A DNA stretch of 64,000 bases from Escherichia phage vB_EcoM_PhAPEC2. Below, one piece after another: positions 7,867 through 39,326 of this stretch (positions are counted from its first letter, which is position 1; every line of letters starts with the position of its first letter). The position numbers and the translations under genes are program-made. The stretch is from the sequence record NC_024794.1; one strand, 5' to 3'. Under the pieces are notes generated by a model, which saw only the letters and a list, made by a program, of their open reading frames with translations, did no database searches and was not told the origin of the DNA.

Positions 7867-8073
7867 TCATCGTTTCCACCATTTCTTAACTTGAAATGAA
7901 TCGACCCACACGAGTTGTTTTGGGTCTGCCTTTACAATAGGCGGACAAATTTCTGTAATAGAACTGTCGTGATATTCCTTTTCAGAAATTTTAACACAAA
8001 GAGGACCTCCCAATTTAAGGGTGAACCCTGCGTTCAGCTTCAGACGTTTAAACTTTGTTTGAACTAGCGCCAT
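7867..8073 (-). CDS. Hypothetical protein
   Basis: ORF with ATG at 8073 (MALVQTKFKRL...); overlaps end of upstream ORF, start uncertain. Confidence 0.3.
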   Translation of the reverse strand: MALVQTKFKRLKLNAGFTLKLGGPLCVKISEKEYHDSSITEICPPIVKADPKQLVWVDSFQVKKWWKR

Positions 8074-8371
8074 TAATGATGTCCTCAATAGCCTGACGAG
8101 TAGTAACCCACTGGATTTTAATTAACTTGTCATTATATGGTTGTCGTAGAATATCCCGAGATTTCTTAATAGCATATTCGTAAGCTTCGAAGTTGTTTTG
8201 AATTGCTGCTTCTTGAGCATGAGCATAAAGACGGTTTAGTTCAAAACGATTCTTTTTAAGAATCTTTTCGGATTTTTTACGTGCTTCAGCTTCATTTTTC
8301 TTTTGGATTTCTTGTAGCATTTTAGCTACTGCATCTTCTGCTTCTTTATTTTCAATAATCTCGGTAGTCAT
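8048..8371 (-). CDS. Hypothetical protein (107 aa)
   Basis: ORF between 47 and 55, in the interval where T4 carries a-gt. Confidence 0.45.
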   Translation of the reverse strand: MTTEIIENKEAEDAVAKMLQEIQKKNEAEARKKSEKILKKNRFELNRLYAHAQEAAIQNNFEAYEYAIKKSRDILRQPYNDKLIKIQWVTTRQAIEDIINGASSNKV

Positions 8372-8372
8372 A

Positions 8373-8588
8373 TTATCTCATTAAATTAAAATAAAAACGT
8401 CCATCCTCTTCAATACAGAACTCATACTCAACCGGAGTCCCATTTATCGAAAATGACACGTCATGTGGGTTCAAAGGGTCGATGTCAAAATTAATTTTAA
8501 ATTCACGACCCAACAGTTTTACCAAATAAGGGATTGCTTCGTCAAAAGGTTCTTCTAAGTAGTTAGAGATGTCAATTGTCATCCTCAT
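8373..8588 (-). CDS. Hypothetical protein (start uncertain)
   Basis: ORF overlapping 3' end of gene 55; plausible ATGs at 8588/8582. Confidence 0.4.
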
Positions 8589-9129
8589 ATAAAAAATCCA
8601 AACTAGGCGAATCGCTAACAACTTCCTTCTTTTCAGCCCCAGGAGCTTTATAAGCGGATTCTTCATAATGCGTCATTTTATCGTAGATGTCTTGAATAAA
8701 CGTTTCATCTACCAACGCTACCATATCATCGTCATGACTGTCGTAGACATTATGAACGAAGTAACTATATTTCTTTGCAACTTCCTTACGTTCTTTTTTG
8801 ATACGTTGGACAAAAGCATTAAAACAAGCTCGAGTTATGTATGCATGTGGGTTATTGTACTTAGTTTCGTCGAAATTATGAAGTCCCTTAATAGAGGCTT
8901 CAATCCCATCTGCAATCATCTCCTGCTTCCAAGACTGGGTATATCCTGAAAAGTTGAAACGTTTGGACAGGCCTTCGGCGATAAGCATAATTGCTAAACC
9001 GATGGTATCATTCTGACGAATAATTTTGTTTGGGTCTTTATTATTTAAGAGCTCCTTTTTCCACTCGATTATAGCGGCGAGAAGCTCTTTATTATTCACA
9101 TAGTTATTTTTAGGTTTTTGTTCGGTCAT
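8572..9129 (-). CDS. 55: Late-transcription sigma factor gp55
   Basis: 185 aa from ATG 9129: [27 protein letters not shown]...[35 protein letters not shown]... near-identical to T4 gp55 as recalled; track start 9147 is a TTG extension. Confidence 0.93.
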
Positions 9130-15582: not shown

Positions 15583-15918
15583 TTAACCCCGGAGTTTATT
15601 GAGCTCTTCATAATCAATCCAGGATTCTAGCCCTGACGGCAGGTCACATTCAATGTTCCACAGAAGCTCTTCAATGGCTTGCAGGCGATTATATTCTTCA
15701 ACAGTAATAGTAACCATTGTTTCAGGCTTTTTAACCATCATGTCATTCATCAGAATGTACAGGTCTTCACAAACAGCCGGGTCGTCCCATGTCCATATTT
15801 CAGCATCTCGAACCAATGAAGTCGGAATCGAATTTAAAACTTCAAGCTTAGTAGGAGCGTCAGGACCGAGAAGAGTTGCTACAAATTTATATGCTTTGGT
15901 GAAATCAATATTGTTCAT
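15583..15918 (-). CDS. Hypothetical acidic protein
   Basis: 111-aa ORF, ATG verified at 15918. Confidence 0.5.
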   Translation of the reverse strand: MNNIDFTKAYKFVATLLGPDAPTKLEVLNSIPTSLVRDAEIWTWDDPAVCEDLYILMNDMMVKKPETMVTITVEEYNRLQAIEELLWNIECDLPSGLESWIDYEELNKLRG

Positions 15919-16178
15919 TTAAAATATTCTCGCAGTTGGTCAAATCCACCAATGTGACTTCCGTCAGGAGCAAACACTTGAGGCATAGTCAATCCGACTT
16001 GTGATTCACGTCCAAGCTTAACCAGAAGCTCAGCAATTTTCTCATCATCAAACACACCTTTTTCTGGCATAACATTAATGAATTCAAATGGCTGTTTCTT
16101 AACAGTCAGCAATCGTTTTGCATTATCACAATAAATGCATTTATGAATAGTAGAGTCATACCCGTACACTTTAAACAT
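15915..16178 (-). CDS. nrdC: Thioredoxin/glutaredoxin NrdC
   Basis: 87 aa; MFKVYGYDSTIHKCIYCDNAKRLL... with CxYC redox motif, near-identical to T4 NrdC as recalled. Confidence 0.9.
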   Translation of the reverse strand: MFKVYGYDSTIHKCIYCDNAKRLLTVKKQPFEFINVMPEKGVFDDEKIAELLVKLGRESQVGLTMPQVFAPDGSHIGGFDQLREYFK

Positions 16179-16585
16179 TATTTTTTCCTTTCATCGATTA
16201 AATACGCAACACCAAATACAATACATGTAATAAAACCTGTGATACCGATAGAGAACATCAACACTGTACCAAAGAACCAAATCAGATTATCTTTAGTAGT
16301 TTGTTTGATATCCATCTCACGAATTTCTATAGCTATCGTATCACCTTTATTCAGAAGCGTATAAAACGACGGTGATACATGCCTGTCAAAAACTCGACCT
16401 TGTTCATCTTTATAAACTGCAATAAATTCCAATTTAGAATATTTTCCTGTAGATTGGCCTGAGATTAATTCTACTACCTCCACAGGAATTACTTTAGTTT
16501 CCATGTAAGTATTCTGGCTGTTCCAAATGAATGGAATAATGGCAAAAACTAAAGCTGCGATAAAACAACGAAGGCTATATCTCAT
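16178..16585 (-). CDS. Hypothetical membrane protein
   Basis: 135 aa with N- and C-terminal hydrophobic segments. Confidence 0.5.
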   Translation of the reverse strand: MRYSLRCFIAALVFAIIPFIWNSQNTYMETKVIPVEVVELISGQSTGKYSKLEFIAVYKDEQGRVFDRHVSPSFYTLLNKGDTIAIEIREMDIKQTTKDNLIWFFGTVLMFSIGITGFITCIVFGVAYLIDERKK

Positions 16586-16890
16586 TATAATGTTCTCTCA
16601 AATTTGTGGAAGCATTTACGGCATTTCAATTTCAAGTTATCAGTGGTCCAGTTAACCAGTTGGACTTGGATAGTTCCACATTCCGGGCATGGATGTTTTG
16701 CTGCCGATTTGGCAGCATTTTCACGTCGTTCAACCATTTTCATTATTTCGTTCCATGCCGGAGGAACGAACTCTTCTTCACCGTGGATTTTATCTCGCTG
16801 AACAAATTCAATCTTTGAACTATCGTCAATAAACTTAACCAAGCCATGACTAGTGCTCATATCAATATCCTCTAAAAGACGTAGTTTCAT
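16585..16890 (-). CDS. Hypothetical zinc-ribbon protein
   Basis: 101 aa with CPEC...CRKC pair. Confidence 0.5.
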   Translation of the reverse strand: MKLRLLEDIDMSTSHGLVKFIDDSSKIEFVQRDKIHGEEEFVPPAWNEIMKMVERRENAAKSAAKHPCPECGTIQVQLVNWTTDNLKLKCRKCFHKFERTL

Positions 16891-17840
16891 TATAACACCT
16901 CAATGGCATTTCGTAAACCGTCCGCTTTCGCATTCAGAGCTTTTAACGATTTAGTTTGTTCTTTAATCTGGGCTTCGACTTCTTTCAGACGAGATTTGAG
17001 GTACTCACGTTCTTCGCTCAAGTTGTCAACTTTTTCTACTTTAGGTTCTTTAATAGTCTTAAGTTTATACTCGTTAGGGTTCTTCAGCTTAATTCGGGTA
17101 CGAGAACTGAATAACATTGAACCGTTATCTTCGGATTCGTCGAACGTTTCAACAACATCCATAGTCTCTAACAATGTAATAAGTTTATAAGACAACGAAC
17201 GAATAGTTTTGTTGTGCTTATTAATTTCTTCGGCTTTCATAGTACCGAGATTACGTGAGTAGTAATAAGGAACCTGGATATCAATTGACAATGATGCGTT
17301 ACCATTACCAGTTGGTTTGAATACTGCAGTAACCCAATCTTTAACATGAACTTTATTTGTACGGCCATCACCGCCAGTGAATAATTTACGAGAATGTTTA
17401 AAAAGCATATTCACTTGTTTATTGAATTCACAAGCAAATTTATCAGCAAATTTAGTTTCAGGAATGGTAGATAACCAATCAGCCAAATGAGTCTTTTTAA
17501 CATCATTAACAATAGTGAATTCAACCAAATCGGTTTTAGATGTCACAGATTTAATAAAGCTCGGTTTCATAAAGTTTTTAATGTTATCGCGAGCTACAGT
17601 AGAAGATAATAAACGAGAACGTTTGAACCATTGAAGCAGCGTCCCTAGTGAATGAGAATATGCATTTTGAGTATCTTTACAGATATGATTTTCTTGGCCT
17701 GTGTATGTACCAAAATCGCGAAGAATACCACTTACTACATCTCGGTGTGGAACATCAAATCCTAGTGCACCAACAGCGCGCTGGGCACGAACGTTAGCGA
17801 TAAGACCGGCAAAGTATTCAATGTAATGTGAACGTGTCAT
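16890..17840 (-). CDS. Hypothetical protein (316 aa) with C-terminal coiled-coil-like tail
   Basis: Long ORF, first gene after the early promoter at 17869-17897; SD AGAGGAAAA. Confidence 0.6.
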   Translation of the reverse strand: MTRSHYIEYFAGLIANVRAQRAVGALGFDVPHRDVVSGILRDFGTYTGQENHICKDTQNAYSHSLGTLLQWFKRSRLLSSTVARDNIKNFMKPSFIKSVTSKTDLVEFTIVNDVKKTHLADWLSTIPETKFADKFACEFNKQVNMLFKHSRKLFTGGDGRTNKVHVKDWVTAVFKPTGNGNASLSIDIQVPYYYSRNLGTMKAEEINKHNKTIRSLSYKLITLLETMDVVETFDESEDNGSMLFSSRTRIKLKNPNEYKLKTIKEPKVEKVDNLSEEREYLKSRLKEVEAQIKEQTKSLKALNAKADGLRNAIEVL

Positions 17841-17868
17841 AATATTTTCCTCTCGTTAAGATAGATTC

Positions 17869-17897
17869 ATTATACTCCAACCATCCTTGGTTGTAAA
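17869..17897 (-). promoter_or_regulatory. T4-type early promoter TTTACA-N17-TATAAT
   Basis: Minus GGTTTACAACCAAGGATGGTTGGAGTATAAT; 25-bp core identical to the promoter at 18889-18917. Confidence 0.6.
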
Positions 17898-17902
17898 CCG
17901 TT

Positions 17903-18862
17903 TTATGATTTTAATGCATTCATTGCGTTAAAAAGTTTAGAATACTGCAACTGGAGATTCGTTACAACACTTTGAGCATCACGAAGCTTAGCTTGTGCTT
18001 TGTCAAGTTCAACGGACAGTTGGTCTACAGTAGCCTTGATTTGGTTGTAATGATAATCTTCGGCCGGAAGAAGGTCATTAGAAACATTTAGTTTTACTGC
18101 CGACAGTTTGCACACATTTGGCAAACATTTAAACATATCGGGTTGTGCCGGAGAATATGCGCTTAGAACCTCTGCATTACCGACTGGTGTTGCTGTGATA
18201 TTGCCTTCGAACGTTGCATTTTCCTTTTTAAGATTTTGATAGTATTCAGAGTCTTTGTGCCACCATGGCGCAGGAACCTTTTTACCAATAGATACACGAG
18301 CCTGGATAGCGATATGGCCCTTATTCTTGATAATGTCGATAATATTAAGCTCACGAGAATAAATCGCTTTAATCTGGTGGATATTATCACCTAAAACTTC
18401 CAACGCTTGGTGGAATACACGAGCAACGTTATCATTCTTAGGTTTATACGTGAGAGTGAACTCGTTCTCACTGATAACCATGATTTCCAACTTATCGTAA
18501 GTATATTTCAAATGTTTCATGTTAATTGCTTGAGGACGAATACGAGAAGCAATGGCCATCAAATTGTTAAGGTTATTTCTGAACTGTTTAGCAAAATATT
18601 GTCCATAACCGCCAATACAAAAATTACGAAGTTTCTGTTTGGCTAATAAACGGCTGAACTCACCATTTTTAATGAACTCTTTAACGGGTGTGTTAGTAAC
18701 GCATTCAAATTGAGTAAACTTACGAGAAGTAATCCCGTAATATGAACAGATTTCCTCAATCTCTTCAGGAGTCTTTACAGGCATACGGATAGGATTAGGT
18801 CCTGTGGTATATGCGTTCGAGGTAAATTCTTTGATAAGTTCTCTACGTGTAATAGAAGCCAT
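17903..18862 (-). CDS. Hypothetical protein (319 aa) with C-terminal coiled-coil-like tail
   Basis: Long ORF, first gene after the early promoter at 18889-18917. Confidence 0.6.
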   Translation of the reverse strand: MASITRRELIKEFTSNAYTTGPNPIRMPVKTPEEIEEICSYYGITSRKFTQFECVTNTPVKEFIKNGEFSRLLAKQKLRNFCIGGYGQYFAKQFRNNLNNLMAIASRIRPQAINMKHLKYTYDKLEIMVISENEFTLTYKPKNDNVARVFHQALEVLGDNIHQIKAIYSRELNIIDIIKNKGHIAIQARVSIGKKVPAPWWHKDSEYYQNLKKENATFEGNITATPVGNAEVLSAYSPAQPDMFKCLPNVCKLSAVKLNVSNDLLPAEDYHYNQIKATVDQLSVELDKAQAKLRDAQSVVTNLQLQYSKLFNAMNALKS

Positions 18863-18888
18863 TTTATATTCCTCATGTTGAAAAATTT

Positions 18889-18917
18889 ATTATACTCCAA
18901 CCATCCTTGGTTGTACA
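18889..18917 (-). promoter_or_regulatory. T4-type early promoter TGTACA-N17-TATAAT
   Basis: Minus TGTACAACCAAGGATGGTTGGAGTATAAT. Confidence 0.55.
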
Positions 18918-19916
18918 TCATTCCTTAAGAAGTTTTACTACTTGAATAAGATTAGCTCGTTCTGTTTTATTTTTACCGTTTAAGCCTGCTAATCGTGAGA
19001 TCTCATCGTCAGTCTGTTGAATAGTTACATTAAGTTCGTTAATCAAAGCTTCAAAGTATTTGATTTGCTCAGCATGTTTTGATTCAAATTTCTGAACCGG
19101 AATAACGTCTTGGTTTAGTTCATCAATAAGGTCTTTAAGAGCATCTTCTTGGTTGATATCATATTCAACTTCTTTTATTTCTTCAACGAGCTCGTCTTTA
19201 TATCTAACGTCTTTTAGTCCTGGAGCTGGTCCTGAAATCTCTTCTTTAAGAGTACAAACATACCCAATACGGTATCCAATACCCAGGAACGGCTTGATAT
19301 CAACTTCGTCGATAAATCCACAATGTTTAAGACCAGAGCCGATTAGGTCAAAATATCCTTGACGTCGTCCTTCAAACGTTACACGAACTACTAAGACGGT
19401 TTTACCTGCAACCTTTTGAAGCTCACATTTATAAAAGTCAGTTGAACCTGAATAACGTGGATGAGTTTTAAAGTTCATCTGACGATCTAGGCCCATTTGT
19501 AAACGTGCTGTTACGGCCATAAAACGTGTTTGGTTCTCGTTAAGATGAGCAACAATCCATTTCAAAGGCATTTTACCCTGTTCACGTCCGAACAAATCAG
19601 TACGTCCTAGATTACGCAGGATGTTGTTAGAGTTAATCATCGACAGAACGTTAAGTTTATTCAGCGCGCTGAAGATTCCATCAGCCATTGATTTTCCATA
19701 ACCTTTACACGCTTTAATAAGTGCTCGCGGCAGATTAGTATAGATTTCAGACGGCATATGAAAATCAAATTTTCTAACCAATAATTGATGAACTTGGATA
19801 GCAATTTGCTCATAATTAAGTGCTCTGCGATCGTTATGGTCTTTAAACCACACTTTAATCTGTGAAGCACATAAACCGTTAATTTCATGTTTTATCGCAT
19901 CAGATGTAATGCTCAT
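18918..19916 (-). CDS. Hypothetical protein (332 aa) with C-terminal coiled-coil-like tail
   Basis: Long ORF, ATG verified at 19916. Confidence 0.6.
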   Translation of the reverse strand: MSITSDAIKHEINGLCASQIKVWFKDHNDRRALNYEQIAIQVHQLLVRKFDFHMPSEIYTNLPRALIKACKGYGKSMADGIFSALNKLNVLSMINSNNILRNLGRTDLFGREQGKMPLKWIVAHLNENQTRFMAVTARLQMGLDRQMNFKTHPRYSGSTDFYKCELQKVAGKTVLVVRVTFEGRRQGYFDLIGSGLKHCGFIDEVDIKPFLGIGYRIGYVCTLKEEISGPAPGLKDVRYKDELVEEIKEVEYDINQEDALKDLIDELNQDVIPVQKFESKHAEQIKYFEALINELNVTIQQTDDEISRLAGLNGKNKTERANLIQVVKLLKE

Positions 19917-19950
19917 AACTATTTCCTCAGATTGAATTGGAACTCAAAAC

Positions 19951-19976
19951 CATTATAACCCGTCCTTGGGTAAAGC
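19951..19976 (-). promoter_or_regulatory. Candidate MotA-type middle promoter (CGCTTTA box, 13-nt spacer, TATAAT)
   Basis: Minus ACGCTTTACCCAAGGACGGGTTATAAT upstream of 18918..19916. Confidence 0.3.
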
Positions 19977-19978
19977 GT

Positions 19979-20506
19979 TTATGCGTGAACCGTCTTTAAA
20001 CGTTCTTCAAATTTCCGAAGAGTACTAATACGTTCTGCTTTCTGTTTTGTATAGTTTGCAATACGTTCTGAAGTGAGAGCGTATCGTTCGTTTACTGTTT
20101 CTTTCATGAAGTCAGGGATTTCACGAGAAGCTTTAATTTCATCAAACTTATCGAGTACTGCCTGGTCTTCAGCGATTAAATTTTCGTACATCTCGATATC
20201 TTTCTTGATAAACTCGATATCTTCCTGGGTTACTTTGGATAAACGAGATGCTTTATCCTTTTTGTACTGCTCGTTAGTTTCACGAGACCAGAATAATGTA
20301 CGTTTTTTGTTGGTGTTTTTGTAGACTTCCACAATTCCAACTGAATCGATGATAACAATCCAATTCCAGCGAGATTTGAAAATCTGACCTCCGTCCACGG
20401 TAATCTCGTTACCATAAGCAACGTCATTAAAGAACTTGCTTTGTGCTTCAGATTTAAATTTACCGTCGTTATAATTTACCAGGTTGAAAATATCTTTAGC
20501 GTTCAT
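19979..20506 (-). CDS. Hypothetical protein (175 aa)
   Basis: ORF directly downstream of the promoter cassette at 20523-20562. Confidence 0.55.
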   Translation of the reverse strand: MNAKDIFNLVNYNDGKFKSEAQSKFFNDVAYGNEITVDGGQIFKSRWNWIVIIDSVGIVEVYKNTNKKRTLFWSRETNEQYKKDKASRLSKVTQEDIEFIKKDIEMYENLIAEDQAVLDKFDEIKASREIPDFMKETVNERYALTSERIANYTKQKAERISTLRKFEERLKTVHA

Positions 20507-20990: not shown

Positions 20991-21992
20991 TTATTTCAGT
21001 AAAGTTACTTCAGAGATTTCCTCCCAACCATCCTTATCAGTTGAAATAAAATCTGCTACATAAAGAGCCGTACGTAATGATACATTGCGAAGACGAGATA
21101 CGTTAGCCTTCATCCAGGACAATGCTTTGTACGTTTCAGCATCAGTCAAGCCACGTTTCTGCATCATGTCAGTAGATAATATTACATCTTCAACTCGAAC
21201 CATAATCTCTTCATTAGAGTGTACTCCAAGGTCGAGATACACTGAACGAGATACTAAAGCTTGAAGGTGTGGAGCAAGTTTCGAACCGCGTTCTAACTCT
21301 TTATCGATATCAACGTTTGTAATGAAAACGATAGTACCTTCAAACTCAAATTCTTTATCAATACCCTTATCATCGAGATAAGATGACGCAGTGCTCCAAC
21401 AAACTTTGCGTTTATCTCCGGTATCTAATGCTGCTTTAAGAAGGTTCAAGATGTCCATATCTGAGAATACGTCAACGTCGTCGATTAAGAGAACGCTGTC
21501 TGCATCACGGTTGAGCCAAAGTTGTTCGTAAAGGCCAATACCAGAGATTTTACCATTAATGCTTTTGTATTTGATGAAACCGTTATCATTAGCGTTATTA
21601 AGTGCTTTATCCAGAGAATACGTCTTACCAATACCAGCTGCACCTGAAATAATGAGTGAACGAATTTTGCCATCGATAATGCCATTCGTCATCATGTTCA
21701 TTACTTTAAAGCGTTTGTTGATACGAGTTTTCATATCTTCAGTGCTTTCAACAACTGCAACTGGTGACGTCTCAACTCCTTCCATTACGATGTCTGATTT
21801 GAAGACCCATACTCCACGTTCAGAACCATCGATCATAACGAAAATTTTACCATCACCTAAGTGGGAACATTCAGGATTAAGCTTTGCCGGGAACCATGTC
21901 TTTGTGGCAACATAAGAACCAGAGATTTCGTTATTACGATAGATACCTTTTTTGATTTGAACGTTGAACATTTTATTCTCCAATTTACTCAT
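20991..21992 (-). CDS. P-loop NTPase of unknown function
   Basis: 333 aa; Walker A GAAGIGKT and Walker B-like VLLIDDVD; own promoter cassette upstream. Confidence 0.6.
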   Translation of the reverse strand: MSKLENKMFNVQIKKGIYRNNEISGSYVATKTWFPAKLNPECSHLGDGKIFVMIDGSERGVWVFKSDIVMEGVETSPVAVVESTEDMKTRINKRFKVMNMMTNGIIDGKIRSLIISGAAGIGKTYSLDKALNNANDNGFIKYKSINGKISGIGLYEQLWLNRDADSVLLIDDVDVFSDMDILNLLKAALDTGDKRKVCWSTASSYLDDKGIDKEFEFEGTIVFITNVDIDKELERGSKLAPHLQALVSRSVYLDLGVHSNEEIMVRVEDVILSTDMMQKRGLTDAETYKALSWMKANVSRLRNVSLRTALYVADFISTDKDGWEEISEVTLLK

Positions 21993-39283: not shown

Positions 39284-39326
39284 TAGTTGATAAGTCTATA
39301 GTATCACCATCCTTGGTGCTTGTACA
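39284..39326 (-). promoter_or_regulatory. PeSL-like early promoter cassette (TGTACA-N17-TACTAT)
   Basis: Minus TGTACAAGCACCAAGGATGGTGATACTATAGACTTATCAACTAC. Confidence 0.4.

Follow-up and report, generated by a model that had tools for sequence, protein, structure and literature searches.

Three consecutive genes of Escherichia phage vB_EcoM_PhAPEC2, lying in a stretch of 64,000 nucleotides (NC_024794.1; this whole stretch is referred to as the window), can be placed by sequence comparison among the nrdC.x genes of T-even phages, as homologues of nrdC.3, nrdC.5 and nrdC.6. The middle protein falls in the same Pfam family (DUF7235, PF23882) as T4 NrdC.5, which counteracts the host defence protein Dsr1, and profile comparisons indicate that NrdC.3, NrdC.4 and NrdC.5 are a single divergent paralogous family. 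The favoured reading is that NrdC.5 of the window would inhibit a Dsr1-type or other host sensor, and that NrdC.3 and, tentatively, NrdC.6 would be sister inhibitors. A probability of roughly 0.55 is given to this combined statement; confidence is higher for nrdC.5 alone, and lower for nrdC.3 and nrdC.6. New here are the tie of NrdC.3 and NrdC.4 to the anti-Dsr1 NrdC.5 family, a polymorphic nrdC.5 cassette between identical promoter cores, and a covarying hairpin in the promoter spacers.

The functional evidence comes from T4. A T4 clone without a block of non-essential genes does not infect ECOR17 or MG1655 carrying ECOR17 dsr1, and nrdC.5 in trans restores plaquing of the deletion clone on dsr1 cells (Srikant, Guegler and Laub, eLife 2022, PMC9391042). 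T4 NrdC.5 is the sole family member for which an experimental function was found. Dsr1 has a SIR2 domain and is believed to deplete NAD+, and according to a 2026 preprint its TPR sensor domain, common to Avs7, recognises phage major capsid proteins; as these are late proteins, this fits an inhibitor made earlier in infection. The NrdC.5-type protein of the window matches DUF7235 across profile positions 1-307 of 307 (398 bits with a gathering cut-off of 30, E = 3.9e-119), and T4 NrdC.5 matches the same profile with 420.6 bits (E = 5.3e-126). In BLASTP the two proteins are 25% identical over 313 amino acids (E = 4e-11). The gene stands in the syntenic slot, between nrdC.6 and nrdC.3/nrdC.4 in the nrdC-mobD region, and its protein belongs to PHROG family 2351, with PF23882 carried by close relatives. 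The initial annotation had proposed the three genes as anti-defence candidates, and for the middle one the shared family supports that guess. By homology an anti-defence role is thus well supported for nrdC.5, and for nrdC.3 and nrdC.6 we infer it.

The three proteins had also been suggested to be distant paralogues. Pairwise BLAST among the three found no similarity. For profile comparison, family alignments were built from T4, Mosigvirus, VR20 and E33 members, with the last 55 residues cut to prevent the coiled coil from driving the score. With these alignments HHalign matches NrdC.3 with NrdC.4 (97.5%, E = 8e-12), NrdC.4 with NrdC.5 (86%, E = 5e-6), and NrdC.3 + NrdC.4 together with NrdC.5 (93%, E = 2.7e-7), the last match being collinear over about 220 columns from the N-terminus. 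Reversed-template controls gave P of 0.17-0.78. NrdC.3 and NrdC.4 are also both contained in phrog_1435. A joint MAFFT alignment of NrdC.5 and NrdC.3 was at odds with the HHalign register, and was not used for folding. The suggestion of paralogy therefore holds for the first two proteins of the window, but not statistically for the third, as HHalign of NrdC.6 with the other families is not significant (P = 0.03-0.19). When 181 open reading frames (ORFs) were searched, the three top non-family matches of the NrdC.3 + NrdC.4 hidden Markov model (HMM) were one NrdC.5 and two NrdC.6 proteins (weak, E = 0.04-0.07), and the top non-family match of the NrdC.6 HMM was an NrdC.4 (also weak, E within 0.04-0.3). 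A profile of the C-terminal tail gave no link of NrdC.6 to other proteins. The HMM matches are suggestive, and NrdC.6 may be a paralogue of the others.

All three genes lie on the minus strand, at exactly the coordinates first assigned to them. The nrdC.3 orthologue (16890..17840) encodes 316 amino acids (36.1 kDa, isoelectric point (pI) 9.4), the nrdC.5-family gene (17903..18862) 319 amino acids (36.4 kDa, pI 9.3), and the nrdC.6 homologue (18918..19916) 332 amino acids (38.0 kDa, pI 8.1), each with a GAGG Shine-Dalgarno sequence 8-10 nt 5' of the ATG. The proteins are soluble and basic (pI 8.1-9.5), without a transmembrane segment. The 4.1 kb around them are 97-98.5% identical to many Mosigvirus (RB69-like T-even) coliphages, of which AV111 is the closest, and the window is that of a Mosigvirus. 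Every gene of the stretch is on the minus strand, in a T4-like order (nrdD, gene 49, pin, nrdC, the nrdC.x series, nrdC.11), and the region is the nrdC hyperplastic region of T-even phages in its RB69-type form. RB69 (95% DNA identity) labels the same three genes nrdC.3, nrdC.5 and nrdC.6.

The genes had been described as ORFans encoding non-conserved proteins. This does not stand: each protein has hundreds of T-even homologues and a PHROG family, with a Pfam accession on the protein itself or on close relatives, and as orthologues or homologues of named T4/RB69 genes the three are not orphans. NrdC.3 has tblastn matches in 652 phage records, with 55-57% identity in phages of the T4, T2 and T6 types and 74-77% in a different Tequatrovirus group. 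It is 56% identical to T4 NrdC.3 over 316 amino acids, the full length (E = 9e-119), and matches phrog_1435 (E = 1.6e-101), with PF26897 carried by close relatives; the gene has about 95% DNA identity to that of RB69. NrdC.5 has matches in 171 records, about 130 of them close and the remainder T4-type NrdC.5 at 23-25% identity. NrdC.6 is found in 740 records, with 32-34% identity to Tequatrovirus NrdC.6 over 92% of the protein (tblastn, E about 1e-26), a match to phrog_2257 (E = 4.1e-125), and PF26899 carried by relatives. The initial annotation had held that clear orthology to T4 nrdC.x genes with housekeeping roles would tell against its proposal; the orthology is clear, but a housekeeping role was found for none of the genes. 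The families are taxonomically narrow. When 1.84 billion representative proteins were searched exhaustively by HMM, the RB69-type NrdC.5 profile retrieved its own cluster only, and not T4-type NrdC.5 at E <= 0.001. With the intermediate member VR20 as the tblastn query, the matches were almost only T-even-type phages of enterobacteria. Profile searches of PDB sequences and of PADLOC returned coiled-coil noise only.

The members of the NrdC.3/NrdC.4/NrdC.5 family share a layout in which the N-terminal domain is helical, the core alpha/beta and the C-terminus a heptad helix (in NrdC.3 at about 275-315, with the alpha/beta part as the middle of the protein). Each of the three window proteins had been said to end in a charged, coiled-coil-like tail. 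Hydrophobic periodicity at heptad positions a and d in the last 42 residues, compared with shuffles, agrees with this for the first protein (p about 0.004) and the second (p about 0.0005) but not for the third (p = 0.17), and a best-window heptad test over the whole protein is not significant in any of the three. Enrichment in charged residues is limited to the first tail (40%, compared with 28% for the whole protein). AlphaFold2 predicts, with moderate confidence, a single long C-terminal helix at 275-315 in NrdC.3 and at 266-318 in the NrdC.5-type protein. A coiled-coil-like tail is thus reasonable for two proteins, and is unproven for the third, whose C-terminal region is helical or coiled-coil-like and interrupted by a Gly/Asn-rich turn. 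The models were built from shallow alignments (24 homologues for NrdC.3, 19 near-identical homologues for the NrdC.5-type protein) and are consequently of low confidence, with pLDDT 55 for NrdC.3, where only residues 1-85 and the C-terminal helix are confident, and pLDDT 39 for the NrdC.5-type protein.

The three proteins are divergent in comparison with their neighbours. Identity to T4 is 56% for NrdC.3, 25% for NrdC.5 and about 33-37% for NrdC.6, whereas the flanking gp49, NrdC, NrdC.8, NrdC.10 and NrdC.11 are at 78-92%. Comparison of Mosigvirus relatives gives dN/dS values of 0.11-0.20 for the three genes (nrdC.3 0.11-0.20, nrdC.5 and nrdC.6 0.14-0.20), which is clear purifying selection on functional genes, if looser than on nrdC.10 (0-0.02) or nrdC.11 (0.05-0.08). 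The gene complement also varies: T4 has nrdC.3,.4,.5 and.6, the window and RB69 have.3,.5 and.6, and the Gaprivervirus VR20 and the Dhakavirus E33 have.4,.5 and.6. The proteins diverge strongly, paralogues turn over, and genes present in one phage are missing from its close relatives: an arms-race-like pattern that is typical of counter-defence accessory genes. Among Mosigvirus alleles of the NrdC.5-type protein that are otherwise 88-95% identical, residues ~216-262 are the sole hypervariable stretch, with substitutions and indels; they link the globular part to the C-terminal helix.

Presence and absence are clearest for nrdC.5, which lies in a cassette (17869..18914, minus strand) bounded by two 26-bp direct repeats (1020 bp from repeat to repeat). 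In phages p000v and F2 the matching region is broken into two pieces and extends over 2066 bp, compared with 3089 bp in the window. At the p000v junction a single core joins the nrdC.6-side flank to the nrdC.3-side flank, an order that places the crossover inside the core. A 301-bp junction query is contiguous, without the cassette, in 21 of 152 related records, and split exactly at the core in the other 131. The comparison indicates that nrdC.5 has been gained or lost by recombination within the promoter cores.

The repeats are the cores of two promoters. The initial annotation had given each gene its own promoter, the first two being near-identical, and a consensus scan over 14-24 kb of the window agrees, with 11/12 and 10/12 sites in the gaps. 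The early-type sigma-70 promoter of nrdC.3 (17869..17897, minus strand; TTTACA-N17-TATAAT, 11/12 consensus matches) has its -35 at 17897-17892, its -10 at 17874-17869 and a predicted transcription start near 17862. The early-type promoter of nrdC.5 (18889..18917, minus strand; TGTACA-N17-TATAAT, 10/12) has its -35 at 18917-18912, directly after the nrdC.6 stop, its -10 at 18894-18889 and a predicted start near 18882. The scan found 28 promoter-like sites where shuffles predict 32, so that the total is not above chance and the argument rests on position and quality: the nrdC.3 promoter ranks first and the nrdC.5 promoter joint second, and both are in intergenic gaps. Their common core, given as 25 bp in the initial annotation, is exactly 26 bp long (ACAACCAAGGATGGTTGGAGTATAAT, at 17869-17894 and 18889-18914), and at <=3 mismatches the 64 kb contain it exactly twice, with zero copies expected by chance. 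A further promoter-like site (16889-16917, minus strand; TTTACG-N17-TATAAT with TG before the -10, 10/12) falls within the final codons of nrdC.3. The -10 overlaps the ATG start codon of the downstream nrdC.2-like gene and so leaves no space for a leader; the site may be due to chance or be an internal promoter.

The promoter of nrdC.6 is of the middle type (19952..19980, minus strand; aaaCGCTTTA-N13-TATAAT). Its MotA-box-like sequence (19980-19971) overlaps the nrdC.8 stop, its -10 is at 19957-19952, and transcription is predicted to start near 19945. The MotA box consensus is (a/t)(a/t)(a/t)TGCTTtA, 12 +/- 1 bp upstream of a good -10 (PMC2988021), from which the window site differs by one mismatch (T to C) at an allowed spacing. 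The site is homologous to T4 CGCTTTATACCAAGGATGGTATAAT, in which the -10 lies 7 nt upstream of start 53325 of the middle promoter PnrdC.7, mapped experimentally (PMC2988021, Table 1). The MotA-like character proposed for this third promoter is thereby confirmed, and the nrdC.6 promoter is the homologue of PnrdC.7.

A hairpin of a 6-bp stem and an AGGA loop (CAACCA-AGGA-TGGTTG) lies inside the -35/-10 spacer of the nrdC.3 promoter (17878-17893) and of the nrdC.5 promoter (18898-18913), on the minus strand, and the 13-nt spacer of the nrdC.6 promoter contains ACCC-AAGGAC-GGGT. Across nine promoter variants 90.7% of cells are paired, and four of the six pairs have changed on both sides, with covariation at the outer stem positions. 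The covariation score is 0.63, compared with 0.145 in shuffles (0/500 reach the observed value) and at most 0.16 for slid partners. As RNA, the intergenic regions fold no more stably than shuffles (z = -0.6), and for this reason the hairpin is argued from covariation only. The stem-AGGA-stem design (core CCAAGGATGG) is seen at 19958-19971 (minus strand), in the nrdC.6 promoter just described, and in a further window promoter at 39305-39318 (minus strand). It is also present in the T4 promoters that precede nrdC.3, nrdC.4 and nrdC.7, and in those preceding nrdC.4 in VR20 and E33. Some early and middle promoters of T-even phages thus form a subclass with a short inverted repeat in the spacer between the -35 (or MotA box) and the -10. 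A terminator scan of the promoter gaps found no terminator-like site, and Rfam gave no match in 14-24 kb. The hairpin is without a U-tract and by sequence is not a classical terminator, and terminator activity is doubtful. Candidate roles are RNA processing or stability on read-through transcripts, DNA structure, and a recombination site.

The stop of nrdC.3 overlaps the ATG of the nrdC.2-like gene (TAATG), an arrangement of translational coupling. The nrdC.2-like protein (16585-16890, minus strand, 101 amino acids) is 50% identical to T4 NrdC.2 and has two CxxC pairs (CPECG...CRKC), weak zinc-ribbon Pfam matches and a match to phrog_1474. At the T4 nrdC.1 position (16178-16585, minus strand) is a predicted membrane protein of 135 amino acids with 40% identity to T4 nrdC.7 (E = 3e-24); since T4 nrdC.7 sits between nrdC.8 and nrdC.6, a gene has been relocated within the array. 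The nrdC.10 orthologue (20991-21992, minus strand) is 78% identical to T4, and its dN/dS marks the strongest constraint in the region; it has weak Pfam matches to P-loop/AAA and STAND-NTPase domains (AAA_22, AAA_16, nSTAND3) and weak PHROG matches to clamp loaders. The T4 reference nrdC.6 (275 amino acids; T4 NC_000866 stretch 8067-8894) has a C-terminal end unlike that of all homologues, and the conserved tail (...SEREKLIKIVDLLKS) is encoded in a different frame just downstream, within the next 70 bp. In tblastn T4 AF158101 is matched in two pieces and another T4 record in one, and the reference ending is likely to be a frameshift or sequencing difference.

In the mechanism that we propose, NrdC.5 of the window would be produced before replication from its early-type promoter and would act as a stoichiometric inhibitor, binding a Dsr1-type or differently specific host sensor and keeping it inactive before the late trigger. 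The C-terminal coiled coil would supply oligomerisation and avidity. NrdC.3 and, more tentatively, NrdC.6 would be sister inhibitors with other host targets: for NrdC.3 this is plausible because it is a paralogue of NrdC.5, and for NrdC.6 the proposal draws on context and architecture only. A wider and distinctly speculative extension, which we would bet against, is that NrdC.3/4/5, and possibly NrdC.6, might be fast-diversifying coiled-coil inhibitors, each paralogue directed at its own pattern-recognition defence protein of the host (Dsr1-like or another), in an exchangeable array where the hairpin-bearing cores would have a double role, as signals for expression and as sites of recombination. 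If true, T-even phages would carry a promoter-delimited "anti-defence cassette array".

A number of observations weigh against inhibition of host sensors by these proteins. At 25% identity to T4 NrdC.5, the specificity of the window protein, and even its anti-Dsr1 activity, may differ. Direct binding is proposed by analogy with DSAD1 and DSR2, the T4 experiments showing rescue, not mechanism (PMC9391042). A literature search found no function reported for nrdC.3, nrdC.4 or nrdC.6. The phages of the 21 records without nrdC.5 indicate that the gene is dispensable on their isolation hosts, and gene-wide dN/dS among Mosigvirus relatives gives no positive selection. Structure prediction adds no support: both models (pLDDT 55 and 39) are too poor for fold assignment, Foldseek found no match in the PDB at E <= 0.001, and in BFVD it found the family itself plus weak, low-TM matches to proteins of 300-370 amino acids from Serratia and Acinetobacter T4-like phages, which are not trusted.

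Among the alternatives, it is possible, if rather unlikely, that the three proteins serve as accessory factors in host takeover or phage competition, acting for instance on host metabolism, the nucleoid, transcription or superinfection exclusion and not as immune inhibitors, so that the rescue by T4 NrdC.5 on dsr1 cells would be indirect, for example through NAD metabolism or the timing of the trigger. The basic character of the proteins would suit this, being compatible with nucleic-acid binding and unlike that of acidic DNA-mimic inhibitors, as would the nucleotide-metabolism neighbours nrdD and nrdC and the lack of a demonstrated mechanism for NrdC.5 (PMC9391042). However, the family's one experimental result is a rescue specific to defence (PMC9391042), the divergence, paralogue turnover and presence/absence pattern is the one typical of counter-defence genes, and Pfam, PDB sequences and PADLOC gave no match to any enzyme or DNA-binding family.

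Many GenBank phage records label all nrdC.x genes as thioredoxin, in line with a thioredoxin-related function or one in ribonucleotide-reductase/redox metabolism. The three proteins have no Pfam thioredoxin or glutaredoxin match, though, and the true thioredoxin/glutaredoxin NrdC is the 87-amino-acid ORF at 15915-16178. The label is therefore rejected for want of domain support; it appears to have spread from the "nrdC." name prefix by automatic annotation, and such a function is very improbable. Even less credible is the view that these are chance or decaying ORFs and that the similarity of the promoters is a functionless duplication. It would fit a total of promoter-like sites that does not exceed the shuffled expectation, but two of the top-ranked sites fall exactly in the intergenic gaps, an exact 26-bp repeat is not expected by chance, and the T4 homologue of the third promoter is experimentally mapped. 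Conservation of the full-length ORFs in hundreds of phages, together with their purifying selection (dN/dS 0.11-0.20), refutes it.

T-even phages are the best-studied lytic phages, and about half of their genes are without known function. Placing NrdC.3 and NrdC.4 with NrdC.5 gives a testable hypothesis for several long-unexplained T4/RB69 genes, and the natural presence and absence of nrdC.5 offers near-isogenic phage pairs (AV111 compared with AV109 or p000v) for host-range work. The cassette also illustrates cleanly how promoters can mediate gene shuffling, here in phages of a group that is used for therapy.

The closest known counterpart of the window NrdC.5 is T4 NrdC.5 (UniProt Y05A, 39.7 kDa). 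Both have a full-length DUF7235 match, the same slot in the nrdC array, the same size class and a C-terminal heptad helix, with a similar ...KLxxAxNAL(K) motif at its end, and T4 nrdC.5 is described as an early gene, as the early-type promoter suggests for the window gene. However, with 25% identity between them, the T4-type and RB69-type proteins cluster separately. The arrays differ as well, since the window has no nrdC.4 and carries its T4 nrdC.7 homologue at the T4 nrdC.1 position. DSAD1, described as a phage protein that blocks the SIR2-NADase sensor DSR2 by direct binding, offers a functional analogy only: it belongs to another phage group and its target is DSR2, not Dsr1, so that the two are likened by function and no homology is claimed.

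For the cassette, the known counterpart is the promoter-early stem-loop (PeSL) element, described in RB49/phi1 and in T4/PST (Arbiol et al. 2010; Comeau et al. 2014; PMC2839356, PMC4122927). In the PeSL model, recombination between adjacent promoter cassettes deletes, inserts or circularises the ORF between them (PMC2839356, PMC4122927). The published stem-loop lies upstream of the promoter, whereas that of the window is inside the -35/-10 spacer, and a terminator function as in PeSL is not matched in the window, given the missing U-tract and terminator-like site. The early-type promoters of the window fit the PST/T4 PeSL promoter consensus (TTTACW-N17-TAYWAT), and in both systems repeated strong early promoters flank accessory ORFs in a hyperplastic region, with a stem-loop as part of the element. 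In both, too, a crossover inside the cassette removes or inserts the gene that two cassettes enclose, and the apparent gain or loss of nrdC.5 matches the PeSL shuffling model.

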